Shown: positions 8,444 to 64,000 of the stretch, in pieces | How the letters are laid out: each line of letters begins with the position of its first letter | Position numbering within the stretch: the stretch's first letter is position 1 | Origin: Takakia lepidozioides | Taxonomy: Eukaryota; Plantae; Bryophyta | DNA length: 64,000 nucleotides | Direction of reading: 5' to 3' | NCBI GenBank assembly: GCA_030704615.1 | Contig: CM060731.1 | Span: 27,280,001 to 27,344,000, forward strand | The notes under the pieces: generated by a model | Told to the model about the DNA's origin: nothing | Database searches by the model: none | What the model saw: the letters and a program-made list of their open reading frames with translations, nothing else | Position numbers and translations under genes: made by a program

Positions 8444-8478
8444 GACTTAAATTGTTTGTAAATAATAATGTGACGACT

Positions 8479-10176: not shown

Positions 10177-10196
10177 CTCGAGAGAGATGATGCTAC
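10177..10196 (+). promoter_or_regulatory. Self-priming primer-binding site complementary to LTR sequence 9966-9984
   Basis: CTCGAGAGAGATGA-t-GCTAC immediately after the LTR CA end is the reverse complement of GTAGC-TCATCTCTCTCGAG. No TGG tRNA-type PBS is present. Confidence 0.8.
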
Positions 10197-13468: not shown

Positions 13469-15000
13469 GTGGGGGAGGTGCACATTGTGAGTGTCATCAC
13501 GGAGTTACCCAAGGGTTTTGAGGGGAGTACGGCTACAGGCAGTAGCAGTGAGAGTGGGTTCACAGACGAGGTATTCGTTTTCAGACCACCTTCACCTCCA
13601 CCCTCAACTAGTGCAGAGTCAGACACAGACTCGGAGGCTTCATCAACAGGTGTGCAGTTTCATTCGCCATTGTTGTGGGACGACATGGAGGAGATGTATG
13701 GAGCTACCAAGGGGCCTCGTAGGTACTCTGGAGCTGTGGGCACAATCGAGTTGGATGACTTTATCCAGGAGTTCGACAGCTGGTGTGATTTGCAGCAGAT
13801 GCGCAATCCACAGCTATTCCCATTCATGGCGTGGAAGGGACTGTTCCAGCATTTGGAAGGCCCGCCTATGGACGATTACCACGAGTTCAGGCGAGGACAT
13901 GAAGCAGAGATTGAGGAGTGGAGGATGTATTGGTCACCTGACTACGTCTCCATTACTCGAGGCACGACGCGACCAGTAGCTGCATCAGTACCAATATCTC
14001 CCACTGCCAGCACTAGTAGTGGAACAAGTAGTGCCGGTACTTCTGCAGGTGGTACCAGTTCAAAAGGTGCTACTACTCCTCCTGCCACGACTACAACACA
14101 TGTGCCTAGATTCAACCCGGTGGTGGAGTTCTTCCAGGAGTTGCGGAGGAACTACCAAGGTGTACGGACAGAGAAGCTGCGAAGTTTGCAAGACTTCCAG
14201 CGCAAACCCAGTGAGAGCCTGCGAGAGGCGTACACTCGTATGAGGCGCTTGATAAGTGTGACCCAAGGGGTTACTGAAGCTCAGGCAATCCAGTTTGGTA
14301 TGGAATTTTGGACAAGGAGCTCAAGAGAAGGGTGCGGGATGCAACCCTGTTACAAAGCCCAACCCACATTAGCAGATGTGTTTCTGCTGGCTGAGCGGAT
14401 TGAGCTCAACATGGTGGAGGAGCGAGTTGTTACCATTGGATTTGGCAAGGACATGCCTGCACGAGGCGCAGCTGCCAGCCCACAGGCACAAGGGACTGCC
14501 CAACAGCGTGGTCAGGGGGCAAAGTTTCCCAACCCAAGTTCCATGGAGCTTACAGGGGACCTCAGGTGCAGAGGCCCGTGGCATCTTTTGCAGGCCAACA
14601 ACAACCAGGGTGATATGTTGGACATGTGGAGGACCCCATGTCAAGAGAGATTGCCCAGAGAGTGGCAGAAGGCCGGCACAAGCACAGCCTGCACAGTTGC
14701 AGTGTGGGCATTGTGGCAAGTATGGGCATGGAGATGCCCAGTGTTATGACTTGCATCCTGAGTTGCGCCCAGGCCAGTTCCAAGGGAACAATGGTGGCCG
14801 GGGCGAGGTGGACCAGCCCAGAGAGGACGAGGTGGTCGGGCACGAGGTGCAGGCCAAGGGCAAGCTCAACATGGCCAAGGACGCGGAGGTCAGGGTGTTG
14901 ACCAAGGCATGGCCAACCGGCTTCAGCAGCTAGAGCAGAGGCTCGCTGCAATGGCTATAGCTCAGGCGGTACCGGCTCCCAGGCGGGATGGTCCACCTCC
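13469..15000 (+). pseudogene. gag (capsid-like region plus two zinc knuckles), frameshifted
   Basis: LDDFIQEFDSWC...FQRKPSESLREAYTRMRRL; CWTCGGPHVKRDC and CGHCGKYGHGDAQC. Confidence 0.85.
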
Positions 15001-15679
15001 TGCTCCTGAGGGAGGAGATATGGGAGGCATGGGATTCATGTGCGGAGCAGCACTACCACTAGAGCAGGTGGAGTTTGCTGCAGCCGTGACTCGAGGAGCA
15101 GCACGAGTTCCTGAGCCACGAGGTGCAGAGGTGGAGTTGGATCCACAACGTGGAGAGGCAAGCCGTCAGGTGAGGCTGCCTCAGTCATTCACCTTGGCGG
15201 AGACAGTGTCAATGCCATCCATGGCACCTAGTTCTCGCCCGATTGTTACCGAGGCGGAGGTTTCTATGCCATTGGGGAGAGCTACACGTGCAGCACTGAC
15301 ACCTGCTGCCAAGGCTAGTGCAGCCGGTGTGTTGTGGGGGCAGCCACCTCTGTGTGTCAAGCCCCACTGTTCTCGGCAACCATGATTGCGGCGCCGGGGG
15401 TAAGACCAGCTGCAGTGTTCAGACTAGCAGCAACACTCTGTGAGAGTGGGGAGGTAACTTCATCTTCTGCGGAGTTACTGGAAGGTGTAGTGGCAGAGGG
15501 ATCCTTGGATTTGAGGGTCAAGACTGCCACGGCTGCGCCATGGCAAGCTGCAGCTACCAGGTTGACGGAGCTGCCAGCTAGGCCAGCCTTTGAGCGCGCC
15601 ATGGTGACACCTGGAGTTGTCTGTTCAGGATGATATTTTCTCTTTGAGTGGACCGGCAGGCAAGAAGTACCGGCCACTG

Positions 15680-15960
15680 CGGGTCTTGTTGGACTCGGAG
15701 CTCAGCCACTGATGTTGGGCAGAGCTGCTATTGCAGGTTTGGGCCTCATGGCGGCGGATATGGAGCCTTGTCCTTTCCAGATACAGACATCTCTGGGAGG
15801 ATCAGAGCAGGCTCGGGGCATGACACGGCATCAGTTGGCCATTAGACTGCAGCCGGATCATCCTATCGATGGCTCAGTAATGCGAGCCAAGGCCATTGTG
15901 ACAGACGCGGTCTCTTACGATGTCCTCGTTGGGGGGCAGTGTTATACCCCATGGGCTTCA
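15680..15960 (+). pseudogene. Retropepsin-type aspartic protease
   Basis: RVLLDS(G)AQPLMLG (1-nt deletion) ... YDVLVGG. Confidence 0.8.
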
Positions 15961-16399
15961 CCCTGGACTTTTGGGAGGAGTCAGCATTCTACAGGCGTGG
16001 ATGGCAGTCAGGGGATGGTCGTCGTGGATAGCTCCCTGTGACATTCATTGGGGTATTGCGGCTGCCCAACGGGGCAAGATGCCAACACTAGCCGCCTTTA
16101 CAGCTGCAGTTAGTTGGCCTGGAGAGTTGCTGGAAGGCAATGCCCATGCAGAGGATGTGCCACCTCCAGCAGAGCAGGATGACATGCATGGTGTGGCGGA
16201 GTTGCCTGCCATGGTTGCTCACACTCCATTGTGGGGTACGAGCAAGGATTTGCAGCAGGGCTGCTGATCGACGGGTGCAACAAGCCTGGGTAGAGGCTTT
16301 TGTACCGTCAGGAGAGGAGGAGAGTGCGGGTATTGCACCAGGACCACCTCAGTTGTCACCATTGGATACCACACCTATTGTGTGGCAGTATCCGGATGA

Positions 16400-17150
16400 A
16401 GGCATTTGCCTTCTGGACTTGTTTGGCGGGATCAGCACCGGATTGGCTGCTGTGCTACAGGCAGGTGTGCAGGTAAGGCGTTACCTGTATGTGGAGAGGG
16501 ATGAGACTGCACGACGCGTCTCACTGCGCCATGTTGCTCAGTGGTACAGCAGTACCCTGCTTTGTTGCAGTGTCTGCAGTTCGTGGATACCAACAAGCTC
16601 TGCATTCGTGGATACCAACAAGCCTTGCCAGCAGATATTTCGTTGCTGGGGGCGCCGGATTTGGAGCAGGTTGGCTCCATTAATCTGGTAGTGGCAGGTT
16701 GGCCCTGCCAAGGGCATTCATCAGCCGGCATGGCAATGGATTGCGAGACTCGAGGACAGGTCTGTTTGGGAGATGGTGCGGATTTTGCGCTACTTGCAGC
16801 TTCATCAAGCTGTATTGCCAGCATACATCTTGGAGAATGTGCCACTGATGGGTGATTCTCGGGCCAGGGTGATGGCCAGTGTGCATCAAGTCCGGTCGTG
16901 GCTTGGGTTAGCAGTGCTGCTAGATGCAGCTGCAGTGGGATCACGGGCTCATCGTCCACGGCTATGGTGGACTAACTTGATGCCACCCGCACTGCTCAAG
17001 CGTGCAGCGGCCAACACACCTCATAGTGCAGCATTGGACACAGGTAGCAGTCTCAACGTGTGAGACACGATGACCGTTCACCTTTGGCAGTGGTCACAGG
17101 GTGGGTCAACCACGAGCAGCGCAAAATGGATCTCATGCAAAATGGATCTC
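16400..17150 (+). pseudogene. C5 DNA cytosine methyltransferase domain (DNMT3-like) within pol, frameshifted
   Basis: Motif I LDLFGGI (16413), motif II YLYVE, DI, motif IV VAGWPCQG (PC at 16703-16708), motif VI YILENV (16833), motif VIII AHRPRLWWTNL (16947). Confidence 0.9.
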
Positions 17151-17599
17151 ATTGCTCGACCTGGAATTACAGCTTGGCTATGGCTGAGCAACTTATAGAG
17201 TGCGGAGTGAAACACTTGCCCTTGACGTCTCTCTGCCTACCGGGATGGTACAGCCGCGAGTGGGGGCGAGCCGGTGAGGACCATGGGGTGTATACATCCA
17301 TGGCACACGTGGGAGGTGCTCGAGGTTCAAGGGAGTTTGGCAACCACGGCCGCTGTGATGGGATGATGTTGGGGATTCTTCTCGGGATAGGAGGGTTTCG
17401 CAATGATAGATGAGGGAAGATACAATTATAGGCCTTGTCATTGACTGAGCAAGAAGGGAGTACTACTCAAGAGTTTGCAGCATAGCAACCACAGTTACGC
17501 GTCCTCTACCCTCTAAGCCTACTGGACTTAAGGTTGCAGTTATGGAAGGAACAATTGGGAGCCTGACAAATTGGACCCAATTGTCCCAGGAGGAGAGAG

Positions 17600-19070
17600 A
17601 CAACGTATGCGCGGACGGTTCTTGAAGGGCTTACAGGAATTGCTTGCTTCAGTTTTGAAGGACTTGGGAGTCACTTAAGGGTCAAGAGATCCGTATTGAG
17701 TTGGCCACTGACACGCCAATCTTTCGGAGACCCTATAGATAACAGTGAACTGGGAGGGTCTTTGATTCAGATGATGACTCAGATCTCTGGGAGGCAGGTT
17801 TGGTGGAGTCTCTCATTGTGGAGAGTATGCTTCAGCCACAGTGATGTACCAGACCAAGAATGATGTCTATGGCAAGAAATTGGACGGAAGAGACGTATGT
17901 CCGGTGATTACCGGCCTGTAAAGCCATCAGACCAAGTCCGAAATCGGTATGCCATGCCCACACCATAGGTAGATCTTTGATGCCATTGTGCATAGCAAGC
18001 CAAGGTCTTTAGCACTTGGACTTTTTACGATCCGGATATCACCACAGTTGCCAGATCAAGAGGCGGATAAGCAAAAGACGGCATTCTGGGGGATCAATGA
18101 GCACGGGAAGGATTGCCTATACCAGGGCGGTTCTTACTTGGGGGGGCTTAAAATACCGCTCCCGCTGAGTTTCAAATAGTCATGAAGGATTCTAGCAGGG
18201 TTGAGTTTTGCTCGGTGCTATATAAAGGGAAACATCACATCTTAGTGCTACGGTGAGGAGCGATGGAGACAACCTTCAGGGGGTATTTGAAGCGCTGAGG
18301 ACACACGGATTGAAGTTACAATCCGGCAAGTGCAGTTTTTCCACAACCGATTGAATTATCTGGGTCACATGATATATCCTGGAGGATTAGGGGTACATCA
18401 GACTAAGGTAGAGTCCATTGCCCAAAAAATTCCCGCACGGACCACGGATGTGAGCCGAGTTCGAGCTTTCATGGGTTAGCAAACTATTTACAACTACGAT
18501 TTGTTACAGGTTTAGTGCCATTGCAAAGGCTCTAACCAAGCTGACCAAGGTGGACCAGGAGTGCATTGGGAAGATGATGAAGAAAACAAAAAAAAGCTTT
18601 TCAGAGCTCAACAAGGCAAGGTTGACCTCGGCGCCCATTCTTTGAGACGACCTATCAGGGGGCGTCCTTTTCAGCTGCATACAGATTGGAGCATGCTGGG
18701 GCTTGGAGCGGTGCTCACACGCAGTGGAAGAGTGAGGGAAGAAAGTTCTTAGTGGCTTATCTAGCCGCTTCGAACCACGCTGCAGAGTCTAAGTATAGCT
18801 CATATTAGATGGCGAAACATGCTTAGCTTCAGTGTGGGCCAGTGCACAGAGAGCAAAGTTCAGGTGCTATCTATATGGCAATCTCTTCATCTCTTCACAC
18901 CTTGTCACTGATCACCAACCCACTCAAATGGTTGATGGAGTCAGACAAGCTTACGGGGAAGCTTGCCCGGTGGGCACTCATCCTTCATGAAGTAATGACT
19001 TTCAGGTGGTGCAGTCGACCGGGTTTGGTCCTCTCAAGTAGTGCAGATGGGTTGAGTCGCAATCCATGCA
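17600..19070 (+). pseudogene. Reverse transcriptase and RNase H, heavily frameshifted
   Basis: GDYRPV, GYHQL, DKQKTAFWG, LKLQSGKC; RPFQLHTDWSMLGLGAVL, TDHQPLKWL, KLARWALIL, ADGLSR. Confidence 0.88.
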
Positions 19071-19449
19071 CGAGCCAACAGGATGACACTGGAGACTCGG
19101 TGGCATGGTAGAGACGTGACGAGGAGATGAATGCCCGGATGGCAATGTCATCTGCATTTCTGTGTATCTTCTTGGCAGCGGAATGCCAGGTTGGACCTTC
19201 GACAGTGGATGACTGTAGATCAAGTGTCTGCGGACCCTGAGGCCAGCAATGAGCAAGGGGTCGTCAACACAGATATCCATGAGGATTCAGTTGTTGTTGA
19301 CAATACCTCTGCACTGGGAGACCAACGGCTCCTTAGGGGTGTGATTGTGCCAAGGAAAGATGGATCGGATCCTACAAACGGGCCAAGAGGTTCACATTGG
19401 GAGGGGACACACTTGTGCTCCGAGTGGGGTGGAGTGGTCGAGTGAGGAT

Positions 19450-20260
19450 TGTGCCTCACCCAACACCAGGGGGCAACGGTTAAGTGCGCCTGGGGGCCCA
19501 TGAGGAAGTTTTGGGGCATTTTGGATGCGACGCACTCATAGTCTACTGCAGGGGGGCAGTATGTGGGGCGTGTGGTAAATGCACACGAAGTTGCACAATT
19601 TGTGGCTAGGTGCATGGGTTGTGACAAGGGTGCGTGCTTTGGGGTCATCAAACCCCTTACTCCAGGCATTGCAGCACCCTCTCGTTGTTAGCTTTGAGCC
19701 GATCATGGGGATTGGGCTACAGGGTGAGTCTTGACTTCGCAGGGCCATTGCCATGTAAGGACCATAGGAAGCTAGGGCACACAACAAGTACACGTGTTTG
19801 TTGATGGTGGAGCACTTCTCCAAGTGGATTGAATTTGTTTCCTTGCCGATTATAAGTGGCTAGTGAGGGAGCTGCGTATGCTTCTTAGATTGTGTGCTTA
19901 GCCGATTCGGTTGCTCCAGCTGAGGCCTCAGGAGATACCACGGACCAAGGGAGAGAGTTCTCGGGGGAGTTTTCAGGCTTTGTGTGACAAGGCTATTGAT
20001 AGACCACCGCAACCCACTTCCTCGTGGAGCATCCTGAGGCCGCTATGGCTTGGCAATAGGAGTTGTTCAGCACATACAGAGGGGTTTGCGTAAGTATGGC
20101 TAGCAAATGACAGGGAACCTGGATGGAGATTGGGACCTTCAGTTACCGGCTGTTAGCCCATGGGCTACAAGGTTCAGCAAAGCAATCATCACTGCCTCCT
20201 TCTCGGAAACACAAAATACTTTCTTCAAAAACTCTTTGGGCGCGAACCGATTTGCCATAC
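19450..20260 (+). pseudogene. DDE integrase (HHCC + catalytic core), frameshifted
   Basis: HEE..GHFG, C..CD, LDFAGPLP, VEHFSKWIE, TDQGREF, WDLQLP, LFGREP. Confidence 0.85.
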
Positions 20261-20692
20261 TCCATTCGCAGAGAAGCTGCTACAGATTCTTGACCTTGAC
20301 GATCCGGACGTGTGGGCACGTGCATGTGAGCAGCGTGCAGAGTTGTTCAAGAGAGTCATGGAGCCCATGGGCTTTTGAGAACCTTTCCATTGGCACAACA
20401 CCGGATACATTGAGGTATGCTAAAAGACCATACGTGTGGGGGGGGGCTATCGTCCTGGGGTTGAAATTCAACCCTGGTGACTATGTCTATCTGCAGCAGA
20501 CTGCTCCTACGACCCTGGATGTGACTGCATGACGTGTTATTTGAGGGTTCGGAGGTCTTGTCCCTCAGGCGTTTTGGTCTTGGAGGGTCGGGATGGCATA
20601 ACTTGGAAGACCTGTGCGTTATTGTGCGCCATGTCACGTCTGAATGTCGATGGCAGATTGAACCCAAACTGCAGTGGTCCTGCAGGTTGAGG

Positions 20693-20837
20693 TGCATGTT
20701 GTGTGGGTCTGCTAAAGGGGCAGCCACCATGCTGGTGTGTGATCGATGCTCTAGAGGTTGGTATATTGGGATGCTTGACTCCACCTCTTGAGATGGTTCC
20801 GGATGGGGATTGGTTATGTCCACATTGCATTGGATAG
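20693..20837 (+). pseudogene. C-terminal PHD finger of pol
   Basis: CMLC...MLVCDRC.RGW(H>Y)..CLTPPLEMVPDGDWLCPHC* with one frameshift; C4HC3 pattern. Confidence 0.85.
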
Positions 20838-21097
20838 TGGGAGTGGATATAACCATGGAAGGCTAACAAGAAATGCAAAGCCAAGCTACTAGGGGACCTT
20901 GAACACACGAGGTCTTGACTCAAGTTCATAGATTGCAAGACGGCGACTAACGATGGGGCTACTCTTGTACCCGGCCTCTTGGTCTATAGAGTTTGAGTAC
21001 AATAGGGACAGTGATAGAGGACTTAGTACGGCTGTGGCTATTACATCTTGTAGCTATCTGGAGGTAGAGGGACCTATCCACCAGCTAGGGGGGCGAT

Positions 21098-21628
21098 TGT
21101 GGCAGACTACTTTATTGTGCATATATGTGTGGTGTGGTTTGGACAGCGATGTAGTTGTGTAGCGATATGTATGCGCACGACAGCTGTCAAGTTAAATAAG
21201 CACAGTGTGAAAACAACTAGAATAAAACTAGTTATTTGTATTTAACACTTGGATTTAATTCAAGTGTTAAATCAGGTGTCAAGTTTAGTTTGACACCTGA
21301 ACCGCCTTATCTTCACGAGAGCGGCAGTCGCGTAGCTCATCTCTCTCGAGTTGAGCCTGCGCGACCGAGCTCCTTCGTGCGTTTAGATCTGAGTGTGCTT
21401 ATGATGGGAGTGTAGGTTGTTGTGGGGTGGAGTCCCCATAGCTTGAGGTGCCCCTGGCTCGACTTCTATTTTAAAGAGTGATAACGATGGATTTCATATT
21501 TCTTGTGTTGAGAGTGTGTGTCCTTTTAGCTTTTGTTTATCATTGTGGCAGACTACTTTATTGTGCATATATGTGTGGTGTGGTTTGGACAGCGATGTAG
21601 TTGTGTAGCGATATGTATGCGCACGACA
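21098..21628 (+). repeat. 3' terminal repeats B1 (21098-21182), A2 (21185-21542), B2 (21544-21628)
   Basis: B1 and B2 are identical 85-mers. The B1-A2 junction is the palindrome GACAGCTGTC (21179-21188); the A2-B2 junction is CA-t-TG. Confidence 0.95.
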
Positions 21629-34000: not shown

Positions 34001-35108
34001 GACCAAAATTATCAATGTACCACAGCAGAACTGACCAACTAGTGCTCGTAAGTGTGTGCCCCACTAATTCACTGACCACCGAACATCCTTGAATAGATTT
34101 TTACATGCGATCAATCTCAAGATATTCTGCAAGCTGGAATCATGTGTCAGTCCAGGGAGGCAAGGCTCTCAATCGGAGGACTTTGGGTTTTTGTGTTCTG
34201 CTGTGGTTGTCTCCAGGAGCTTGCAAATAGGTGAGGCTCTGCGGTTGCAAATGGAAGTGCAACGTCGGCTACAAGAGCAGCTTGATGTATCCTTCATTTC
34301 ATATCCTGACTCCTGATATGGCTTTTACAATGTTTTCATACAAAAAATCAACGAGTTTTCCAGCAAGCATCTGTGAGGGGAAAGGTTGTAGGTGTTTTAT
34401 GGCTGCTGTTGCTGGGTGGAATGGGAGTAGAATGGTCGATTTCAATTCTAGACAGTTGCAGGCAAATAGAGGATGGGAGGTATCATGCCTGGTTGCACCA
34501 ACCAAAGTGCACAAGATGTCAGTTGTTTTGTCATTATGCAATTTGTTGCGTGCTATGGTGAACGAGTCAATTGATGTGGGTGGCAATGACTGCAGGTTCA
34601 GAGACACTTGCAACTTCGAATTGAGGCCCAGGGGAAGTACTTGCAATCCATTCTGGAGAAGGCAAAGGAGACACTAGCCGGCCATACTGCAGCAGCCCCA
34701 GGGCTGGAAGCTGCTCATGCTGAGATCACTGAGTTGGCCTCCAAAGCTAAGGAGGGACTCAACCCTTCATTCTCCCAGTTATCTCTGCCAGGGTTGACTC
34801 CATTGGAGATGTCTGCACATGGGAGTGATGCTAGGGGGGGCGCGCCACTGCCACGCCAGCAGTCCCGAGTATCAGACTCCTCATCACCAAAGAGCTACCT
34901 TACTGGTGTTGCAGCAACACCTGATGACAGTCTCAGGCCTTCTGGGAGCAGGGAGCAAGTGGCAGCAACCGGTAAGACAAGACTCCCAGACCCTATGTAC
35001 GTTCACAAGATCCCCTTTAGGGAGGACAGGGAGTCGCAGAGCTCCAAGAGATCAGTGCTAACTGCTTTCAATAACAGGAATCAGGTAATACTAGGCTTGG
35101 GGCTATGA
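31012..35108 (+). CDS. MYB-CC (GARP G2-like, PHR1/PHL family) transcription factor. Exons 31012-31225, 32436-32512, 32867-32936, 33460-33526, 34217-34286, 34596-(34971 or 35108); 3' end uncertain
   Basis: [54 protein letters not shown] and coiled coil [41 protein letters not shown]. All GT-AG junctions are phase-consistent. Confidence 0.93.
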
Positions 35109-43748: not shown

Positions 43749-46700
43749 ATGCCCGTGCATAGAGGGGATGCTAGTGATTCAGCCGAAAAGGGCTCGACCA
43801 ATACTGCGGCTACGGCCTCTCTAGAACAGGAAAGTAAAGTGAGGGGGCGCCCCCCTAAGAAGAGTGCTGGAGATGCTTCGGCGGTAGGCCGCCAATCAGA
43901 CGCCGGCAGTTCGACCATCCCAATGTACGTAAAGGCAACGCCATTTTAAATTTTCTCCGGCCAGATATGTGGGCTTTCTTCAGTTATTGTCAAATGTTTG
44001 TAAACACTGGCGAAGAGCTTCATTGCAGGGAGAAGAAGGCAGAGACAAGGCAGGTACTGAATGGGCTCCATCAAGACAATGGGGAAGTGGAGAGCATTGG
44101 GAAGGAAGAGAAGCCACGGGGTGCCCATTTGTTTCAGTATCCAGAAGGTCCCTCAGAGGCCTCTCTCTTAGTCTATGACAGTGGGTCTGGGGTCTCAGAT
44201 GCTGTAGCCAACCGTGTGGCTCTGTTATCAAAAGAAGGAATACGCACACGGGGATGTTTCACCATTGTTTTGTCAGGAGGTTCTCTTGTGAAGGTATGGG
44301 AAACTTGCATTTGTGGTTAGCATAGATATGTCCGAGCATTATAGCTGAGTGGAGCACTTCTAAAAGCTGTCTTTTTCCTTCCCTCCATCCCTTCCTAGGG
44401 CTCCTGCCTCTATGTTCTTGTTTATCATCCATTTGTCTCAAAACACATCCTATTCAACGTTTTTAGAACACTCATTATGTAGGGATGAATTCCATCAACC
44501 TCCCTGCTTACAGTGTTGGGTCTAAAGCCTTAAATTTATCAGACTTGCACACTTCTTGTTTCTGCAGTGAAAAGGGTTAGAAAACACTTTCACCAATTTC
44601 GTAGACTTCAGATTGTCAAAGAGTCCATGTAACGCAAAGTGTACATCTTATCTTCATGTTTAGTTTTGTAATTGTGCTGAACCTACCACAATTCACTCTT
44701 AATATGGTCATTTGGTACAATAAGAAGGTCTTGACCCTAAGTTACCATTTAATGTCCAGGTATAGGGCTGTAGATTTAATGTAGGATGCTGTAGTGCATG
44801 ACTCATGTAGCTGACCGTCTTTAAGGTGGGTGCAGGCATTAGCGCTGCTAGCTGAGAAGCCACACGTCAGCAACATTGGGTGGGATAGATGGCACGTATT
44901 CTGGGTGGATGAACGCATGGTGCCCCTCTCTCATGCTGACAGTAACTACAGACTTGCTAAGGTCTGTTTATTGCCTTCCTTACTTTCTCTACTTGTTGCA
45001 TAATTTATGTGTGTGTTATGTTTTACCTTAGATTTTGCAACTACATGTTATATAAATTGCAATTAATGTAACACAATGTTTCAGCCCAACCAGCATAGTG
45101 CTCATTCACAGCCAACAAAAATCTGTTCAGGAGGAACCGAGTGAGGATGTATGTGTTAGCCGTAGGAGGAATATGCTTGCTTCTGCACTGCTGCTCTGGC
45201 CCTCCATGTGGTAGTAGATGTGACTAATTTGGCTATGGTTGCTCTGCTAGTGACTGTGTCTGTGTGTATGAGAGAGAGATATAGAGGCAATATAGGTGTA
45301 AGTTGTTTTAATGTACAAGGTTATGGATACTGGCAGGAGGAGTTTTTGTCGAAGGTTCCTGTGCCACAGGATCAAATTCACACTCTGGATGATTGGGATG
45401 TGACCAGTGCAGCAGCTCAAGCGTATGAGCTCACTCTCAGGTTGCTCTCTCCCTCTTCCCTCTTTCTCTATCTCTAGCACCCAGGGTGATTCCTGGGAAT
45501 TGGTTACTTACGCCAAATCTGGGGCTTCATGTGTAGTTTTTGGGGTGAATCCCAGGATGGACAATTTGTCCTTTAAAACTACATGCTCCAGCTTAGGCTT
45601 GGATTATATGGCTAATGGTTCCATCTCGAGACTTGATAACAGAGGTACTTTGAAGGTTGTAATGCCCAAAAATGCTACTAATAGAGTCTCACATCAATTC
45701 AATCTCAAAGACGTTCATCCCTTCACTGGCTGGAGAGCGGTCTTAGACGTTAGTCAGCCCTGAGAAATTGGAAGTGCCCAGCCGCAAGCCAGCCCTTTGC
45801 ATATGAATTGTTTGTCGTCTATGTAGCTTACGGTTGCTCTTGGACGGCCAACCGTTCTGCACAGGGGGGACAATTACCCCGTGTGTAGATTTTGCTCGTC
45901 TTGTGTAGACTTTAAGGATTGGTAAACCATTCAGAGTACCAAATCCTTCAGTCACACGACGCTCAGGCTCAGCAGTCTTAGGGTCAGTTTGTCTGTCTGA
46001 CTGCTTGGAATCAACCTCATCCAGTGCATCAAACCGGTTAGAAACTATCAAGTTGAAGTCCTTGCCCTTGGTTGTCTTCCTGGAGCGCCTCATTGAGTCA
46101 CCAATGCAAAGGAAACAATTCGAAGTGGGACAAGTTCTTCGGGCAAATGATATTCACATCTGTGCTGGGCAAGAGACATGGGAAACTTCGGACAAACTCG
46201 TTGGAGATGTCAATGGTTATAAATGGATAGGTAAGATGTGCGCTCTTAAGGCAGTCTCTGCCAAACGTGGTCAAAAAGGGGTTGGCTTCTTTGTCCGTGA
46301 TTTCGTGTGTGACAATTGTGAAATTATCAGCAAGGGTTTGCGGCATGAGCACAGTATTTGGCAAAAAATGGAATTGAAGGGCGGCGTGAATACGAAGGAC
46401 CCCTTTGTGGGTTGTGTTTACGTGCCCACAGAGGGGACCCTTAGTGCTGGCGCAGACAGCCTTCGAAGACGTAAAGCTGGACTGTGATAAGTTGCTCACC
46501 AAAGGTCAGGTGGTCCTATTGGGTGACTTCAATGCCCGGGTGGGCAAAGGTCTTCATCAGGATGATACCATTGGACCTTTTGGTGAGGACGAGCTGAATT
46601 CTAATGGTAGACGGTTAATAAACTGTCTGGAAGACTTCAGCTTTTGACCTTGAATAATAGGTCAAAAGGAGACCAAGTGCAGTGGACTCGTGAGAAAGCC

Positions 46701-53275: not shown

Positions 53276-54680
53276 GAGACAAAATTGTATAACTTAAGCC
53301 ATGTTTATGTATTCCTGTTGGATCAAACGCCAAATAGTCTAAAGTTACACCTTGTGAACAATGTATAGTTCTAAATGAATAGGAAAATGTGTTCTCGTAA
53401 TTATATGTGATGTATTGGATCCTATTTGAATTTCTTTTGTAATTGGTTGAATTGGAGTCCAGAACTCATTTATTGTTGGGTTATATAAAAGAATATTTTT
53501 GCACGTGTAGCAACTCCAAATTTTGGATTATTAAATTGTATCCATATTGAAGGCATTGAGTTTGTTAACACTGAAATATGTTTAAATTTACCGTTCGCTC
53601 CGTTTCCTAAACCATCATGTGTTGCATAGTTTCTCGCACATAACTTTACTAATATCTTGTTTAACACGAAGAGTTATATGTAAGCCAGCTATATTGGCTA
53701 TATTATCTCAAAGCTTAAAAGTGGATGGACATGTATCATTATGCTTATCAATAGCTTCACAGATATATATATACATCCTTTTAGTTTGATTATGGATTAA
53801 CATAGATTTGTTTGTAAAATACAATTATGGAAATGTTGGATTGTTAGGAGCAAGACGACAACATTGTCGATTTATCATATCAATCAAATTGAGATGTTAT
53901 TGCAATTCACAGTCTATTTAAGATGGCAATGATTTCATTGTGTGATTGACACATTACTTGATTAAGTTCGTAACATTTGATATAATCTTACCAAAAACTA
54001 GGTACTAAAGCATCCGGACCTTCATTTTTCTTCTTGAAAATCCATGAATGTTGCACTGGCAGCGCTTGATAGAATCTCCAATGATAATAACATCAAAATT
54101 ACCAAAGTAAGTATTATGAATTGGTTTTATTGATCTCAGTAGTTGATCAGTAAATGTATGCATCCTTTTACCTACAGGAGATCCGAGACACTTCATCTAA
54201 GACCATAAGTTGTAGTTCGTCAAAAAAAAATTGTAATGTGTCTAGTTGTTTAGAACCTAGCTATGACAAATCTTTGCAATTAAGAGGTATGCTTAGTCAC
54301 GAAGGGATTGTTGTTCAATCTACATTGAACGTAACCTTTCCAGTATATGCTATGAGAATTTATTTTTGTTTATGTGTATCAGATTGTGGATGTCTATTGT
54401 AAAATTTCAATAAACCTTGAATAATAAGCAATAAAGTAAATATTTTTCTAGTTCTTGCTCTCCAAGTTATGAACAAGTGCAAAGGTTTATTAGGAAACAA
54501 ATGTTGTCTGTATATACAATCATCAAAATTTGTGTGTTGCTCTATATTAAGTTTTCACAGTTGTGCATAAAAGTTTGTCGTGGAAATAATATTATTATGC
54601 GCGCAAAAGAGATGTTTGTATTAGGTGTTGTAAGTAAACCCATTTCAGGGTGCAAATGGAATTCAGTAGCCATATCATAT
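52945..54680 (-). mobile_element. Degenerate Helitron/Helentron RepHel remnant (PIF1 helicase plus APE-like endonuclease)
   Basis: VGKRM..DQLLRSIK..YFGNFDVIIIGD and NYATHDGLGNGANG (PIF1); HILCLNE..HGTMLLY (endonuclease); (TA)n at ~53239-53272. Confidence 0.75.
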
Positions 54681-54688
54681 GGTTCTAT

Positions 54689-55170
54689 CAGTGTCGAGCG
54701 GGTATATTATATACCAGGGTCCGGGTATAAAACATAACCTGGCTCGCCCCTTGCATGATATCTTGACCCGGCCCTACTGGTCGGGTATTTAATCTTATCC
54801 TACTCCACTCTCTGATCCACCCTCTCTCCTGTTGTCTGACCTTCTTCAGGTTGTAGGTGATACTAGAATAGTTTGATTTATTTCTTTGTGTTAATATATC
54901 TAGTTCTACGAGCTTTGGTTGTTTCCTTTTGACAGTTACACCCATTTGTAAGTATGCAGGAGAATGCTTCAATGGAAAAGTGCGCAGATCAATATCATTT
55001 TGGTTGCATGTCCTTTAAGAAAGGTATGGTGTACCTAGGATATTGTGGCCCCATGTACATGGACCCTGACCCAATGTGACAGGTAAAAATGTGTAGAGGC
55101 CGGGTATTTTCACACGTCTGGGTTCTTGATAGGACACGGGTACGAGGGGAGGCGAGATGAAGCCGCCCCA
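54689..55170. mobile_element. Partial copy of the hAT-MITE family
   Basis: Begins CAGTGTCGAGCGGGTAT and carries CCGGGTAT repeats like 41825-42644; right TIR and TSD not found. Confidence 0.45.
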
Positions 55171-55179
55171 GCAACCTCT

Positions 55180-57255
55180 ACCCGACGTAAAATAGATTGA
55201 GCTTAAGCCTTTTGCAAAGCAACAGAAAAGCTACAAGAACAGAGGCGTATGGGCTTCTAAGGCTTTTGTTTTTTGCTGCACGATGGGCACATGTGCAAAG
55301 GAACTCGTTGAACTGATGATGCAAACAACCAAAGATCTCGACTGCCGAAGGAAGGAATGTGTCTGTGGAATGACGTGCCCGATAGTCATGCTCATTTCCC
55401 TGCGTAACTATTGAAGCGGCAACTCCCTATGATGAGGTTGTGCCGGGCAGGAGATCCGACCTATTAGGATCAGCGATGACAACGTCCGCCAATGTACGCA
55501 GTCCATCCTGTGAGAGAACAATGTCGTGGGTGGATGGGAGTATGTGCACCTGCTCTCGAATGACATGTATCCCAACATCACGAGCAACCGCAGCTGCTGC
55601 ATCCCAGACGACGTCATGCGTCGCAGTGCGTTCTCCACCGCAGGGGCAACGAAGAAGATGTACAGCGAGTGAATCGAGATGATGGCGACAAATACATTGT
55701 TGTAGTCCTAACACAGAGGGATGCGGAAGACCCATTCAAACTCGTAGGGAGGTGGTAAATACAGCTGAAGACATGCGGAAGGGTGCAATGGTTGGTCGTA
55801 CCGTGAGCCACGCGCCTGCTCCGGGCCCTGCGCACAAGAGAAGTCTGGCCCGATGTGTATCTGAAGGAGCGTCGAAAAGCATGCTGGCAAATGAGTGTCG
55901 GTGCACGCGTTCCATGATAGTATCATGTAAATGCTCCAGACCCTGAGTGACCAACTGTTCAAAGGGTGGCAGACAATCCCGTGCTGGTGTTGGGATGAGA
56001 TCTTGCGCTGAACGAAGATGTTGCTGGAAGGACAAAGAGCCATTGTTGATATGGGCAGCCACCTCCATGAGAAAAGGGCGTTGCTGACACATAAACCGAG
56101 ATGCCAAGGTTGGAGTGACTAAAGCCCAACTACCTAGAAAGGCAACAGGGGCAGTGATGAATGTGGATAGTAAACCCACTCCTCCAGAAGAGATCGGGAA
56201 GGTAGCCTGAGGACATGCCAAGGGCCCCTGCTCACTATCAAATGCACCTGGGCCTAATAGACGACCAAAAATCCCCCTAACAGTCGTATAAAAAGAAGAC
56301 AGAAGCTCCACAAACTGGGGAGTTGAGGGGGAAACAGTAAAAGATAAGAAGGTCGCTGTAAAAAGCATTTAGTGAGAATGCCATGGGCTACCTGCATATC
56401 CCCTAGTTTGGGAAGAAGCTCTATATGGCTTGTATCCTATATTCCTACTTCGGACTGGATTACTGTAAGATCTCCGGTACGGGTGTGATGACTGTAAAAC
56501 AAAAGGATGGAGGAAGCATAAAACAATCCCACAAAGGGAATGAGTTGATGGCATGCGCCGCCGGCTGATCGCAGTTCCTGAAATATTGCTGATCTGGACA
56601 CCGTGTTGAAGGCGTTGGTCACATGCACCTGAAGGACGACCCATTTTGGATGAAGGTCAAGGGAAGCCCGAATCCCATGCACCACCGCTTCACAACCTCC
56701 CGGAGTAGCGACCCCAAACTGATGTGGAGAAAAGTGAGAAGAAATGACCTCCCGAAACTGGATCCAGATAGAGCGGCTCACCAAGCGATATAGAACCTCC
56801 CCCACTGCAATAGGACGAATCCCACCTGTGTTCTTGGACATGGCCAAGAGCCGTGCTGCTCCAAACAAACGTGTTACTGGGGTAGGTATATGTCCCATCG
56901 CAATGAAAGAGCAAACTTCGAACAGCTGGGAAAAGCCACTAGCAGAGTCATGTGGATCGAGACAGTCGCGGAGATGTTCATACATCAAACTAGACGGACC
57001 GGCTGTTGCAAGATGAGGGCTACGAGTGAATACTTGTATGAAAGTATCGCGATCCAATTGAAGGTCCTCATCAGGTTCAAAGTCCTCCACAAAGGAAAGA
57101 AGGATGTCGTCCGCACTGGGGTGGAGATTCTCCAAAGCTGTGACAGTATCAGCCGAAGGCGGTGCTGGGGTAAGAGGAGCAAGAGCTTGAGCTGCACGGG
57201 AATACTCTCCTGCCCGGCCTAGCATAAGACTCCGACGAAGACGCATGTGGATAGA
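55180..57255 (-). mobile_element. CRE-like (RLE-clade) non-LTR retrotransposon, 5'-truncated and frameshifted
   Basis: GGIRPIAVGEVLYRL, QFGVATPGGCEAVVH, TNAFNTVSR, SSGGVGL, GAGAWL, HLLRC..GERTATHD, LADVVIADP. Confidence 0.85.
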
Positions 57256-57259
57256 TGGA

Positions 57260-57490
57260 GTGGCCTGGTGTGGGCCAACGACGCAATGGCGTGAGCGTTG
57301 CACGTGAGCGCGCGAGCGTACGCTCACGCAGGAGTGACGTGGCGTGAGCGTACACTCACGCCAGCTGACGTGGCGTGAGCGTCATGTCAGCATGCTGATG
57401 TGGCGGTAAATGATGACGTGGCACTGTCCGTCAACTGCCACGTCAGCATTAACATGCGCCGCCTATAACCGTGGATGGTCCTATGACCGT
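57260..57490. repeat. Palindrome- and repeat-rich terminal region of the MULE-like element
   Basis: Repeated GCGTGAGC and TGACGTGGC; hairpins GGCGTGAG..CTCACGCC and TGACGTGGCA..TGCCACGTCA. Confidence 0.6.
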
Positions 57491-57898
57491 GGAATTAATG
57501 CAGGGAATCTTGCCTAAATAGAATCAAGACGAGCGTTGAGGCCTACAATTGCAGCATCCAACATTGTGCAATTACAAATGCTTGTTTCACTTTTACAATT
57601 ACGAAGACGACAAAATATCCTCACAAAGTGTGCGCCATAAAGGCTGCCACGAGAAGACTTCCTCCCTCCTCAAATAACAATGAGAGTTATGATCATCTTC
57701 AAAAGATGATTGTAGTGCATAGCGACAGCAAGACATGTAGACTTCGAACGGTGCAATGACAAATGTGCACTACCTAAAAGTTGTCACTCTGAGCTCACTC
57801 CGTATAGTTGGAGGCCATATCATTGCACAGCCGACGAATTGATGTGAATTACACATTTCAAATCATGGTCATCCACATACCACATTACATAGTTCATG

Positions 57899-60800
57899 CT
57901 ACCCATGTGTTGTATCCCGCTGCAAAAGAGTATCGACCTCGTTGAAACTCATAGTGGCCTGGTGAATGAAGTTGTCACGTTTGGGATCGCAAACCATCCT
58001 CCTCAAAAATATGAAATACAAATGTTTGCAGGGTATGAATTTACCTCTCTTGCCCAAACTGGTTGATAGCATATTTACAAAATCAGGACATGTGCAATTG
58101 GGGAAATTGGAAACCGTGATGTCGTAGGTCCTGTCATGAACAGCAGATGTGGAAGTGATGATTGTGAATACCCGACCATATCCTGGATCGGGTACTTCCG
58201 TGGTGCTTCCGACACGAGCTTGGAGCATTCTTGCGGACTCCACTTTGCCAAAGTGTTCAGCGGTTGGAGGGAAACGCCGAACGAGCTTTCCATCTCGTTT
58301 GGTTGGCCACAAGTCAGGATTTGCTGGGGGGACCCGGGAGGACGCAGAAGTAGTAGCACATGCATGGAGTTGGGGTTGTCTCGCAAGGGAAAAACCTGCC
58401 TCCTCCAGCATTTCAATCTCCTGAAAGCTGAGATGTGTTCCCACCTTCACGGGCCAAACGGTTGGAGGAGATGGCTTCATCACTACGGAAAGGACGCACA
58501 GTTCCATGCACACATCTGGCACAATCATCTGCGCAGAACCAGAACTTGTGGTTCTTGGCTTCTGGTTGACCGTATGGACGCATCAAGCCCGTGAAAGTCG
58601 GAGCAGGAGTTCGGGCACCACCTCTGGATATAGATGAAGTGCACACTCTCGAAATTAGTTGCCCTGATCGCTGTACATTTCACACGAGACCCGACACTTG
58701 TGCGTTCTATGTGCCAAACGTGGTCGGGGCATGCGGACTCAAGCACATCAAGGGGGTTGTTTCTCTCCTGCACCATTTCAGTGGCACGGTTTGATGCTGG
58801 AGCTTGCCGTCGTGTTGGAGGTTCCTCCACAATGGAGGTTCCGGACATGGAGCTGTCATGCAGGGAACACGAGGCTTCGAGAAGTTATCACGGTCTGCCC
58901 TGTGGGAATCTGAATCCGAACCAGGTGGAGTGTTCAATTTCCTCTTACAGGAGCCGAATCTCTCCTCCCCTTCAAGATGTGGAACTCTAGAAACAAGTGG
59001 CGTTCCCTGGGCATACATGCTCACCGCCCGTGCTATCTTGATTGGATCCCCAGATCTGTTTGCAGCACGCAACATCAACTCCCATTTGTCCGGACCCTTG
59101 CCACCAACCCCACCTCGTAAGAAATCACGGTATCGGGTTTGTTGTTGCAAGGCACGTATCAAATCATCTGTTGTTGCCACATACAAATCCCGACCTCGTT
59201 TCCCAGACTGCTGCAACCATGCATTGTGCACAGTTTCTGCCAAATTGCAAGATGGCATGTCCGCCATTTCCTCAATGGACATGTTCTGCAAAGAGGATAA
59301 CCACACTTCAGAACAGTGCACAGGAAACAACATAAAGAAAGCAATGAGTCAAAAATATGGAAAGCAAATGTATGAATAAAGCATGAAATAGAAGCCTCGT
59401 ACCATTGTCATGGCTGCTCCCCACTGTCTATATCGGAAGTGCCAAAACGCCAGCCAATCTTCCAATGCTCTCATACTCTCAAGTGATGCAGCTCCAGAAG
59501 AGAACCACCAGGCACGAATTGTCTGGAACAAAGTGTCCGCCTCCTTCATTGTTCTAGCATCTTTGTACTCTTTGCACAATTTACGGTGCTGAGTCTGCAT
59601 CTCTGGTTTGATGTCCGACTTTGTATGTTTTTCCAGAGATTGTGTCCAATGGAATAGACATGTACGCTCTCTTCCTGGCATAGGCACTTTTGGGTCGCCC
59701 GATCCGAAGACAATACGAATAGCATTGAAATTTGCTTGAGCACTATCCGCCATGAAACCTGCGAAATTTGGAGATGGCAGCCCATGACACGTATCAGGGA
59801 ATTCCACATGAGCTTCTGGGATTCCGTATCCTCGGATTGCATGTCACAAACTGCAATTGTCATAACTCGTTGGTACACTGGATCGTAGACATGACAAGCC
59901 ATTGTCGTCCAATCCTTCACTCGTTTCACATGATCAAACATAAGAAAACAGTTCTGCAAGTCCCCAGTCTTCTGCATCCGCTTCACGAGGCTAACCCCAC
60001 TGCCCTCCCCAACAGTCGACATTTTGAAAAGAAAAACTTTGATGGCACCTTGACCTGGGAATACATTGTCCTGGATGTAATCGTACTTGCTCACTCGTTT
60101 CAATTCCAAAATATTGTCTATGTAGCCTCTGATCCCAGAGCCCATTCTCAATGCATTGATCTGATGCCGAATGTTAGGTGAACTTAAAGTGGAGAAATGA
60201 TCCATGACCAGGTCCAATGCTGCACCGTCAAGTTTAGTCCCCACAGAATCTCCTTCACTCAAAATATGGCTTTCCAAGAAGGACTTGCTTGCGCCAAGAG
60301 CAATTGCAGATGTTGTTGCGGATGGGTTTCTCCCGAACTCCTGTTTGATCAACCTCGATACTGTCTCAACACTCTCCCTGTAATCCCCCTTCGAGACAGG
60401 ATGGTTATGGAATCCAAAATGCACACAAGCTCTCGTCATTGTATTCAAACGGTGGACAACATAGTACATTCTTGCTCCGCAGAGCGCCAAACAGGATGGC
60501 ACAAGTTTGCAGAATTTGCAGACGAAAGTGTTTGCCGGTGGAGGGGCAGTCCCAGGCTGAAATGGATTCTCCGCCAGACCCTCCCATTCGCTTTGATTAT
60601 GAACCCAGACTGAAGAAAGTGTCTGCAATTCAAATTATCACACCTAAGGTGTCCATTGCAAACTGTCCTCCTGAAAACAAGCTTGTCATCATTCTGAATA
60701 TTGGATGTTTTTGTTCTGCACCACGGGTGCCCGTCGTGTTTCTTGTCCATTCCATGCATCATGATTGTTACACCTCCAACTCGCGGAGGAGGAGGCAGCT

Positions 60801-61404
60801 CGAATAGGATATCGCCATCAAAAGTCTCCGGCAAGAACTTCACAGGCACCTGCTTCAAAGATTCCCAATCAATTCCCCGCAACTCACTTTTGAATCCAGC
60901 CATTCCTCCCATCGCCCGCAATTTTGGAATGACACTACAAATCTCTTCTTCATCAGCTTCTGCAACCACAGTAGGAAGGACTGGATTTGGAATTTCACTT
61001 ATGTCATCATCGGAAGAATCCGAAAGCTCAACGATTGGAGTGGAGGAAGTCTGTTCTTTTTTCACCACCACCTCCCTCTTGTCTTCAACGACCGAAGCAG
61101 CAGTCCCGGGCGTCACATATGACCCAAGGGACTTTCGCCGAGGCTCTCCAAGTACTCTGTATCGACCAGGACGCACTCTCCACTGGCTGATATGAGCCGT
61201 CTCATCACGGTTTTGGAAAGAATATTTCACCAACTTCCCTTTCAGATCGTAAACCTCTTTCTCCAAAAAGATGGAGCCATTCTGCAGCTGAAAACGGGTA
61301 GCCAAGACATGTTCCAGAACAATTGCAAATCCATTGTCAAGGACTTCCTGGGAGAACGGCACTGGTTTGTCGTCTGAGAAGAACTCCGCTTCAGAGGAAG
61401 CCAT
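57899..61404 (-). pseudogene. Mutator-like transposase: GCM-like Zn domain, DDE core, Cys-rich region, SWIM finger; intron ~59286-59402; several frameshifts
   Basis: WCRTKTSN..CNGHLRCDNLNC..CKFC..C..HFGFHNHP; LMFDHVKR, FMADSAQAN, CLFH, NLAETVH; NCTCPDF..PCKH. Confidence 0.8.
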
Positions 61405-62257
61405 CTTCCTTCCTCGAGTATGTTTGTACCTTGCTATCGCAGATCTAGTGTAAATCGGTTTACTGCTGTCTCCAGAACACAGTTGAAGAATGAGCAGAGA
61501 ATATGGCGGAGGAAGCTCAGATAACGACTGTGCATATTATGTTATTCTTTCCAGATATGCAGCCGTCCATTTTAATTACTTTTCTTGTGGGCCCAGTGGT
61601 CAGAGTATCCCTAGGGGCAGTGTCGGCAACTGTTAAACCGTTAATCAGAACCTCATCAATAAACCCAATAACAAAGCCGACTTCCTGGAAGCATGCCACA
61701 GGATCTGAGAATGGGATTGCAGATTAAGTAAATGTATCTATATACTACTACCAATGATCATGCGCACCTGGAAAGTTCCAAATGTGAAACGAATGTGGGG
61801 TTTGGCTAACAAGGATGACCGTGTATGATATTCCAAATTTGTCATCAAACTCTCGTTCATTTATATTTATTTGTTTAAGACTGCGCATCAATTTCTGGGA
61901 TTCGCTGTTCTTTTTAAATATTGAACCCGTTCTAATAAAGAACACGCCGTTTTTTTTGGGCGGCACACGTCAGACATCCATAACTGAATACGAACAGCTG
62001 TACACCAATTGCTGGCATGTGCACTAATAAGGAAACGACTATGTGTAACGGTCACGCGGGAGGGAATCCGATGCTTCTAGAGACACGCAAGAACGCAGGC
62101 AATCCCGCAAGAAATCGGGAGTCACTGCGTTTTTCTACTTTTCGCGCTTAGAGGGAGAGTGGTAGTCAAGCTGGAGAGGGTTCCTTCTAGAATACGAAAG
62201 AGAAGAAAGTCTCTTTATTTTACTTCCCTTAGAGAGAGACGCAGAGCAAGAGAGAAA

Positions 62258-63910
62258 ATGACGAGGCGTCGTTTGTTGGAGAACACAGGGCCAAGGCAGC
62301 AGGTGAACGCGGAGACTGATTCACAAGAGCAGACGGAGACTGAGGCAGCGGCTGCGACACAGTCGGCGATAAGAGTGCGCCAGCCTGTGGAGGCAGAGAT
62401 GATTCGCAGGGACACTGAAGAAGGTGGAAGCACGCGGAACGCCGAACCTGGAGAAGGTCAAGAAACCCTTGCGCAGACAGAAACTCCAGCAGATGTGAGA
62501 GGGAAGAGGAAAGCTGCAGAAGGGGATCAAATTTCAAAACCTAAGAAGGTGCCAGTAAGTTTTATCATATAGTCTGTCTGATTGCCTTTCAAGGAGTCCT
62601 TCCTCTTCCCTTCTTTAGCAGGAACTACTGATTGCGAGCGTCGTTAACGCCATTCGATTCTCCTCATGAGATTTATGTACCTATGTGTTTGAAGAGAGAG
62701 TCTGCACTTACTATTCTCCCTAAACTACACTGAATGTCGTTGCCGCCAATCAGTTGCACATGTATGTCATTACACAACACCGATCCGGCAGGTCGTTATC
62801 TTTTGTGATTGTCGTTAACACCGTTCGCTATCGCTCTCGCTTTTGTTTTGAATACGGCAGTCTCAGCTTTGCATGTGTAGATTGTGCTGAATTCTTTCAC
62901 ACCATTCATGGTGAGTTTCCTTGATACAGAGTGATGGTCGTTACCGCCATTCACTATTTGCAAATCACTCAGTCAGAACTGAATGGCATCGTGCAGAAAA
63001 CTGTGAGGTCGAAGCCTACAGGATCAGAGGGGAAAGGATCTGGAGATGGGGACGAGTCCGCAAAAAGCTCAGAGAATACAGATGAAGCAGATGAATCCGA
63101 AGTGCACTACCTTGACAAGGTGAAAGAACTCATGTCATTCCAGAAGGTAAACTCTCAGGAGGTTATAAGGGACATGCTCGTATCTGGAGGGCGTCTGGAC
63201 ATACCTCTGTGCCGGATGATATCAATGCCTGTTGTGCGTCCACCTCTTTCCCATGACATAACAAAATTGGAGAGTGATTTTGTGCATGGATATAGACTTG
63301 GTGCACAAGTTTTTATGTGTCACTGACGGATATAAATGGGAAAAGCACATTAGTGTCTCCAGAGATCAGTGATAACTGGGATGAGTGCTGGAAAGATGCC
63401 AATGAGGAGTTCGAGCTGGGCCTCATGATGGGAAAGAACACCCACAATTCTGCAACCACATGTTCTACGTCTGGGACGGCAACCACCGATTGCTGGCATG
63501 GATGGGATACATTCAGAAACACCATTCGAAAGACAAAGACAAGCATGTTGCTGTGGAGGCAATGGTTTTGGATCCAGGAAACGACATCGCTAGGCTTCTT
63601 ACAGCTATGCACGACGTGAACAAGTAAGTCATCCAGGAGATTTCATTCCCTCTGTAGTGTCTTGTTAATCCTCAAAAAACAGTGTTAAGGAATGCAATGT
63701 TTCCAATGTTTTTGCAGATCGACAGAGAAATCGCATGTGACAACAAGCTTGGTTCACACACTATTCCGAATTCAGAGGATTGGTCTGATGAAGCTGGATG
63801 ATTTTCGGACAGTACTACCACCCAATATCATCAAGAAGTGCGAAACAGGAAGAGCTGCAGGCACTTGGTATTCTTTGACACGAGAGGCGTTTCTGGAGTA
63901 CATGTATGCG
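62258..63910 (+). pseudogene. Spliced gene with ParB/sulfiredoxin-like motif (exons 62258-62554, 62997-63623, 63718-63910; continues beyond the window); two frameshifts in exon 2
   Basis: LDIPLCRMISMPVVRP..ITKLESDF..GY and FYVWDGNHRLLAW (DGNHR at 63475-63489); phase-consistent GT-AG junctions. Confidence 0.65.
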
Positions 63911-64000
63911 GTAAGCCCGAGTCTGTAATCTGTTTACTTTTCGAATACATGTTTGTAGTCCCTTCGGAGCTAATCACTACTTGAATGAATGCAGCAAGAA

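Follow-up and report, generated by a model that had tools for sequence, protein, structure and literature searches.

Giant DNA transposons of algae carry passenger genes that combine a ParB-like domain with a methyltransferase-like one, and the function of these passengers, to bind and shield the DNA of their element, has so far only been predicted. One example is Sola1-1_Ec32 of the brown alga Ectocarpus, a 21.5-kb element in which a 1,104-amino-acid (aa) fusion of a ParB-like domain and an N4-methylcytosine/N6-methyladenine (N4mC or 4mC; N6mA or 6mA) methyltransferase lies opposite the transposase, similar green and red algal proteins being cited there to Iyer et al. 2011 (PMC12477816; this and the other works given by accession or DOI are quoted from the parts of their text available to us). 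Another example is provided by the red-algal Plavaka genes PAG2 and PAG3, whose PF01555 and ParB-like domains travel on 17-19 kb transposons, and domains of this type are also found on Chondrus Mutators and Zisuptons (10.1101/2025.02.11.637652). Here we analyze a stretch of 64,000 nucleotides (the window, to which all coordinates refer) from the bryophyte Takakia lepidozioides (GCA_030704615.1, contig CM060731.1, positions 27,280,001 to 27,344,000 of the forward strand). The window holds the left part of a young, many-copy DNA transposon of the Mutator type, in which a gene for a ParB-like protein stands back to back with the transposase gene. A preliminary description of this DNA had called the second gene an undescribed accessory module, a claim overtaken by the reports for Ectocarpus and red algae, where the same passenger type is already in print.

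Three findings define the element: a single repeat unit whose left end is fixed, a GCM-containing transposase of the Mutator/IS256 type, and the homology of the accessory gene to full-length proteins with ParB-like and methylase-like parts. In our preferred reading, to which we assign a probability of roughly 0.6, this Mutator element carries a back-to-back accessory protein with ParB-like, helical and methyltransferase-like parts, which binds the element's own repeats and aids escape from host silencing. By extension from a related family found in metagenome contigs, the element would be expected to measure close to 18 kb and to move by cut-and-paste, duplicating 8-9 bp of its target.

A repeated unit with a fixed left end

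When contigs of four public runs (X1, X3, X6 and X8) were aligned to positions 54,000-64,000, summed contig depth rose at 57.3 kb from 11-17 to 5,300-14,900 in X1, from about 3,500-5,400 to 178,000-466,000 in X3 and from 7-19 to 139-366 in X6. In these three runs it remained high over the transposase, spacer, introns and accessory gene to the window edge; X8, possibly RNA, covered the element patchily, with no step at 57.3 kb. Ten contigs of X3 and four of X6 begin at 57276, with flank agreements of 0.44 and 0.54, respectively, and contigs from other copies of the long interspersed nuclear element (LINE) that served as insertion target cease to match at 57272-57275. One contig joint places the left end of the element within another copy, inserted at 63673. 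The depth step and the contig starts move the beginning of the element from 57899, as given in the preliminary description, to 57276. That both genes belong to one element, as supposed there, is borne out by the shared depth plateau, by the fixed left end with mixed flanks and by the same layout in the related family; a juxtaposition of the two genes in this window alone was rejected on the depth evidence.

The window copy has at least six one-base coding indels, which many other copies lack (at five of the six sites they are missing from nearly all X6 depth, at 63309 from about half of it), and a short gap near 59785. The six indels stem either from errors in long reads or from the decay of this particular copy.

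The two divergent genes

The transposase gene starts on the minus strand with an ATG at 61404, as first described, and its assignment to the Mutator-like GCM/DDE/SWIM type also stands. Homologs numbered 74 among 1,234 candidates, none bearing a precomputed Pfam domain. A model of one of them (P0004), built from 61 sequences with a predicted local distance difference test (pLDDT) score of 81, returned ISCth4 (IS256/Mutator) as its top four Foldseek hits (E 3e-4 to 9e-4) and matched the GCM domain 1odh (probability 1.00, E 5e-3). In line with this fold, the residues D, D, C and H are conserved in 60, 57, 53 and 54 of the 61 homologs, and the catalytic E is visible in exon 2 of the window copy. 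The SWIM finger match stayed under the cut-off (E 0.0029), and Pfam MULE (PF10551) was matched by 0 of 10 scanned homologs and 0 of six window pieces, which lowers the case for a typical Mutator-like element (MULE) and not the structural assignment. A CACTA/Plavaka identity was rejected because the element end reads CAACG and the fold is IS256-type, and Helitron and Starship identities because a DDE transposase is present. Relatives of the window transposase occurred in none of 58 stretches of metagenome contigs, and its alignment found none in viral contigs (0 of 312).

The 85-aa beta domain at the N-terminus (61140-61404), well predicted in the model, is present twice in homolog P0020 and is a candidate partner-binding module. 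At 1-1400 the window holds the 3' end of another such transposase, distantly related (plus strand, SWIM finger at about 73-510; pieces 38-49% identical), followed by GCTCATG repeats resembling the ends of the related family and then by a Gypsy insertion near 1400.

The plus-strand spliced gene that had been noticed some 850 bp away starts at 62258, at a distance of 853 bp; the splice sites of both genes (Table 1) are predictions from GT-AG signals and register with homologs. The motifs quoted for it are present, FYVWDGNHRLLAW at 63463-63501 and IPLCRMISMPVVRP...ITKLESDFVHGY at about 63201-63290, and two one-base gaps put them out of frame with each other. DGxHR had been put forward as the signature of the ParB/sulfiredoxin (Srx) fold: the bare motif does not exceed chance, arising in 26 of 60 shuffled windows; an extended pattern arose in 2 of 60. 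A chance motif was rejected on account of homology to a Ceratodon protein. Specifically, the motif exon matched three of six candidates, one of them a 1,147-aa Ceratodon protein with a C-terminal PF01555, and, once the breaks are bridged, the window protein shows 40% identity to this protein over 232 aa. The closest named homologs come from Ceratodon, which points to a moss as the likely host. The gene calls of homologs P0001 and P0079 run into an intron at the residue of the exon 4 start.

A full search yielded 856 homolog clusters at E <= 0.001; ten among the best 150 of these were looked up by name, of which six come from Riccia and one from Ceratodon. The Ceratodon and Riccia homologs are 1147-1207 aa long, with the ParB-like domain first and the methyltransferase-like end last. 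Locus tags place near-identical Ceratodon proteins on chromosome 1 in one isolate and on chromosome 4 in another, and a third Ceratodon paralog exists.

The accessory domain probably adopts a ParB/Srx fold, as judged from its motifs and from hits in a language-model atlas, and through it would bind a nucleotide. The motif DGNHR is conserved in most of 58 homologs (D in 45, G in 53, N in all 58, H in 54 and R in 48), and the upstream VRP and downstream N are likewise conserved and placed as in ParB. The atlas ranked DUF3723 first for the ParB-like part (0.96, 182/256 features), with ParB_N at 0.91-0.92 and low shared features (117-132). Alignment by hhalign to 35 bacterial ParB sequences gave the expected register, DGNHR falling on AGERR and MHDIN on IENIQ. 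Sub-threshold Pfam matches among the 58 members were to DUF1015 in three and to DndB in two, both of which we take to be kin of ParB. A model of the ParB-like part reached a pLDDT of 40 from a 4-row alignment, no helix-turn-helix was identified in the accessory protein, and relatives of the ParB-like part were found neither in prokaryotic genomes (0 of 237) nor in phages. A match of its profile to eL24 (E 0.004) was rejected as chance, covering the helical insert only. Residues 215-455 of the Ceratodon homolog P0003 score 0.95-0.96 against fungal DUF3723 clusters, which suggests, as a lead, that DUF3723 itself may be ParB/Srx-like.

The methylase-like part accompanies the ParB-like part in five of nine long proteins, and for a sixth it lies in an adjacent gene model. 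PF01555 scored above the cut-off for P0003 and P0088, and the methylase-like profile matches DpnA and CcrM over their full length (E 5e-5 and 4e-4, respectively). Motif IV precedes motif I on a Rossmann fold in the homologs, as in the beta class; these proteins end in a beta-class N6-adenine/N4-cytosine methyltransferase-like domain, which we class as like the family and not as a working member. The fusion to a DNA-modifying domain, anticipated beyond the window by the preliminary description, is present in the homologs, and the window copy presumably has the same methylase end.

Table 1. Features of the transposon and of its insertion site in the window.
Feature	Positions	Strand	Remarks
LINE (non-LTR retrotransposon; reverse transcriptase open reading frame)	55736..57275	-	insertion target of the element; RVT_1 E 2.9e-6
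Transposon, left part	57276..64000	.	depth step and high plateau in 3/4 runs; contigs starting at 57276; continues past window edge
Left terminus and subterminal region	57276..57520	+	starts CAACGACGC; likely imperfect terminal inverted repeat; same start in L023, L036, L045
Palindromic unit array, GCGTGAGC-GTAC-RCTCACGC	57282..57405	.	period 31-32 bp; unit number differs between copies
Transposase exon 2, stop at 57899	57899..59285	-	catalytic E region (NLAETVHN), C-terminal SWIM finger; three one-base indels in window copy
Transposase intron, GT-AG, 117 bp	59286..59402	-	gene calls of homologs diverge at same place
Transposase exon 1	59403..61404	-	encodes a small beta domain at the N-terminus, a GCM-like zinc domain (about 60400-60740) and an RNase H core (two D, CxxH); 74 homologs
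Spacer, 853 bp	61405..62257	.	putative two-way promoter; no repeat array; at element depth
Accessory exon 1, low-complexity, basic patch	62258..62554	+	ATG, GTAAGT donor
Three spaced 25-bp repeats in intron 1 (family D1)	62632..62953	+	GTTAAC core
Accessory exon 2, ParB-like domain	62997..63623	+	IPLCRM..VVRP, DGNHR (63475-63489), MHDVN; acceptor 62973 also in frame; one-base gaps at 63309, 63444 in window copy
Accessory exon 3, helical part after ParB-like domain	63718..63910	+	in register with Ceratodon P0003 residues 384-451
Accessory exon 4 start (QE)	63995..64000	+	in register with QD of P0003; gene continues beyond window

A related family in metagenome contigs

A metagenome search with the ParB-like alignment gave 48 loci (49 of 226 stretches) in 30 clusters at 97% identity, of which L047 and L048 were dropped after a failed re-test, and L039, L040 and L044 are probably one place. 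Most loci form one old family, about 18 kb in span, with copies about 70-85% identical. The majority sequence of 11 copies has the ParB-like, middle and methylase parts in order, and in L016 the remnants of the transposase (on the opposite strand), the ParB-like part and the methylase lie in one contig. Eleven clusters extend at least 6 kb upstream. Among these, two (L016 and L023) hold opposite-strand transposase remnants, as found by protein search; three more keep transposase-side DNA, in one case the first 150 bp of the transposase and in two (L036 and L045) the left end with the transposase deleted; four have only the spacer in common and two have nothing in common. The left ends of L023, L036 and L045 match that of the window element, and in deletion derivatives of the family the ParB-like gene remains joined to the left end. 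As to the linkage of the two genes elsewhere, which the preliminary description had made a test of its claim, all three parts occur in L016, with the same left end and layout in the family; six of the 11 long loci have no transposase-side sequence.

Both ends are preserved in L036, an old copy, with TAAACCCC at each side, i.e., a duplication that is exact over 8 bp or extends to 9 bp with one mismatch. Target-site duplications of Mutator elements and MULEs are 8-11 bp long, usually 9. The two ends agree in nine of their first 12 bases and have subterminal repeats in common. Before the ParB-like gene, the related family has palindrome arrays, with 14-27 RAGCTY sites in 2.2 kb, compared with 3-12 in the next 5 kb, in all eight copies analyzed (8/8).

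A stretch of about 5 kb that separates the methylase-like end from the right terminus (L038:14500-18900 and matching parts of L006, L016, L027 and L036) contains decayed minus-strand coding traces, possibly a third gene of the family; neither of two pieces scanned matched Pfam. The discarded L047 has, at 1436-13000, a 3,855-aa open reading frame in a phage-like contig, and its weak match (E 6e-4) was lost on re-test.

Proposed role and known systems

In the reading that we prefer, the transposase would bind the element ends via its GCM domain and mobilize the whole by cut-and-paste, as family knowledge suggests, and the accessory protein would be expressed from the spacer that the two genes share. 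The ParB-like and helical parts of this protein are predicted to find the palindromes of the element, and the methylase fold may then hold or shield the DNA against host 5-methylcytosine (5mC), by analogy with VANC for VANDAL elements. No elements other than VANDAL are known to alter the chromatin that they themselves occupy (10.1101/2025.02.11.637652). Because most lineages have an eroded catalytic motif, gripping or shielding of DNA is a more likely task of the methylase domain than methylation.

Alternatively, an active N4-cytosine/N6-adenine methyltransferase, guided by the ParB-like domain, could mark the element DNA, and the mark would prevent host 5mC or maintain promoter activity. This is unlikely, even though the beta-class motif order and an acidic S-adenosylmethionine (SAM)-binding position are retained, four of 13 proteins have DxP(Y/F) as DTPF, DQPY or DQPF, and methyltransferases of bacterial origin work as 4mC writers in Marchantia and bdelloids (10.1101/2021.02.12.428880; PMC8885841). 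Indeed, the PP of the catalytic (D/N/S)PP(Y/F), which DpnA and CcrM have as DPPY, occurs in 0 of the 13 proteins; the aromatic residue is missing in the nine that read DxP(E/S/T); the SAM loop of the homologs is DLSASTG, DWSANTG or DLTTST and departs from DPFMGSG; and the majority sequence of the related family has DVPS. It would be a long shot to go further and propose that a young Mutator family in a moss encodes a 4mC/6mA writer that still works and that a nucleotide-gated clamp of the ParB type loads onto the element's palindromes; if true, this would constitute a transposon-borne second methyl mark in land plants, belong to one passenger family (including algal PAG3 and fungal DUF3723) that moves between unrelated giant transposons, and be a candidate source of host 4mC enzymes.

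A function as a MURB-like transposition cofactor, in which loading of the ParB-like domain on the ends would serve to bring these, or the transposase, together without a role in silencing, is likewise improbable. The palindromic array at the element end and the transposase's separate small N-terminal domain are in agreement with it, as is the binding of MURB to the MURA N-terminus (PMC12973397). However, the same passenger type accompanies the unrelated transposases of Sola, Plavaka and Zisupton elements, as would suit a job independent of the vehicle, and the end arrays could instead serve the GCM domain as putative sites. Least plausible is that the ParB-like gene is a separate mobile unit or a captured gene, in or beside the Mutator, amplified as inert cargo: the six long loci that lack transposase-side sequence and the active Sola elements that could carry the Ceratodon homologs (PMC12973397 Table S2) would permit it, but the same head-to-head layout and left end recur in two families that share only 31% identity in transposase exon 2 (window versus L023, over 479 aa), the ParB-like gene of the deletion derivatives is still attached to the left end, and GNH is conserved in 53-58 of the 58 homologs.

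Several observations weigh against the preferred reading. Summed contig depth is not copy number, no run contig spans both genes, and the right terminus and methylase end of the window's own family would lie beyond 64,000. Transposase coding remnants occur in only two of the 11 upstream-extended loci and methylase remnants in seven of the 14 loci with at least 4.5 kb downstream, and the duplication of L036 is a single case in a telomere-like, low-complexity flank. The hhalign score of the ParB alignment (9.3) falls within those of 40 shuffles (mean 11.3, maximum 17.7), and Pfam, NCBIfam and PDB gave no significant ParB match. No palindrome array was found in the window spacer, the window array sitting only at the element end. 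Finally, strong CG and CHG depletion in old copies (0.24-0.39) means that shielding, if there was any, was at best temporary; the window copy, with ratios of 0.72 and 1.13, resembles the flanking LINE (0.62 and 1.08) and is thus uninformative on shielding.

The young, many-copy bryophyte family and the intact Ceratodon homologs make the shielding idea testable in transformable plants with well-known 5mC silencing. Additionally, a large bryophyte Mutator clade (74 clusters) and an accessory family (856 clusters) escape Pfam-based surveys, and 4mC/6mA signals in moss repeats may stem from transposon enzymes.

Elsewhere in the window, 1414-4032 holds chromodomain-type Ty3/Gypsy pol fragments (reverse transcriptase, integrase and a C-terminal YLVKW motif), and 34590-35105 and 43859-44317 are presumably pieces of host genes, resembling a MYB coiled-coil (PHR1-like) factor and 6-phosphogluconolactonase. 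A decayed Gypsy-type long terminal repeat element at 9821-21542 has 356-bp direct repeats 98% alike, with gag, RNase H and PHD traces, and includes a C5 DNA methyltransferase-like region at about 16400-17060 (DLFGGI, GWPCQ, ENV, RxR; PF00145 E 0.009). In this respect it resembles KnitGypsy-Dnmt3 of the alga Klebsormidium (PMC5890265), here with a likely land plant as host.

As for prior reports, a plant MULE survey records ParB in 2 of 1,846 clusters, without species or comment, and the domain listing in the available part of its Table S6 includes neither N6_N4_Mtase nor GCM (PMC12973397). ParB-linked methylases in algae have been ascribed to phages, with few such enzymes in land plants (PMC4738411), and the available portions of PMC6431247, PMC11735767 and PMC12344493 do not mention an element of this kind. 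No land-plant report of it was found in the literature, Iyer et al. 2011 and the Cell version of the Marchantia paper lying outside the coverage.

Among described systems, the Mutator/MULE superfamily (MuDR, VANDAL; IS256-family ISCth4) has in common with this element a WRKY-GCM1-type DNA-binding domain, a DDE core with CxxH, a C-terminal SWIM finger, an accessory gene and perhaps, in the one case of L036, an 8-9 bp duplication. Unlike typical MULEs, it has no Pfam MULE match, a domain closest to GCM proper and imperfect ends starting CA. To our knowledge, its accessory protein is unrelated to MURB or VANC. The GCM-DDE-SWIM layout itself has been described for MULEs (PMC1702500). MpDN4MT1 of Marchantia and N4CMT of bdelloids have a similar bacterial-type beta-class amino-methyltransferase fold in a eukaryote, but they belong to the host, their motifs are intact (TSPPY in MpDN4MT1) and no ParB-like domain has been reported for them. 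DUF3723 (PF12520) is a conserved passenger of fungal Starships (10.1101/2021.12.13.472469) and, besides being the best language-model match of the ParB-like part, resembles it as a fixed passenger of giant mobile elements; in contrast, none of the 58 members matches Pfam DUF3723, and Starships use a tyrosine recombinase.

The closest likeness is to the algal ParB-methyltransferase accessory type, to which the fusion in the long homologs, the three parts of L016 and the ~18-kb family correspond. As in the PAG elements, inverted-repeat arrays lie next to the ParB-like gene in the related metagenome family; unlike PAG2 and PAG3, which are two genes fused to SET and 2OG oxygenase, there is one fusion here, with neither partner seen. 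As in Sola1-1_Ec32, the accessory gene lies opposite the transposase of a giant DNA transposon and its 1147-1207 aa homologs have the same domain order, a likeness of architecture between a Sola transposase in a brown alga and a GCM-type Mutator in a bryophyte. Thus, the passenger type is already known in algae, and what is new is its land-plant host and its vehicle, a GCM-Mutator missed by Pfam.

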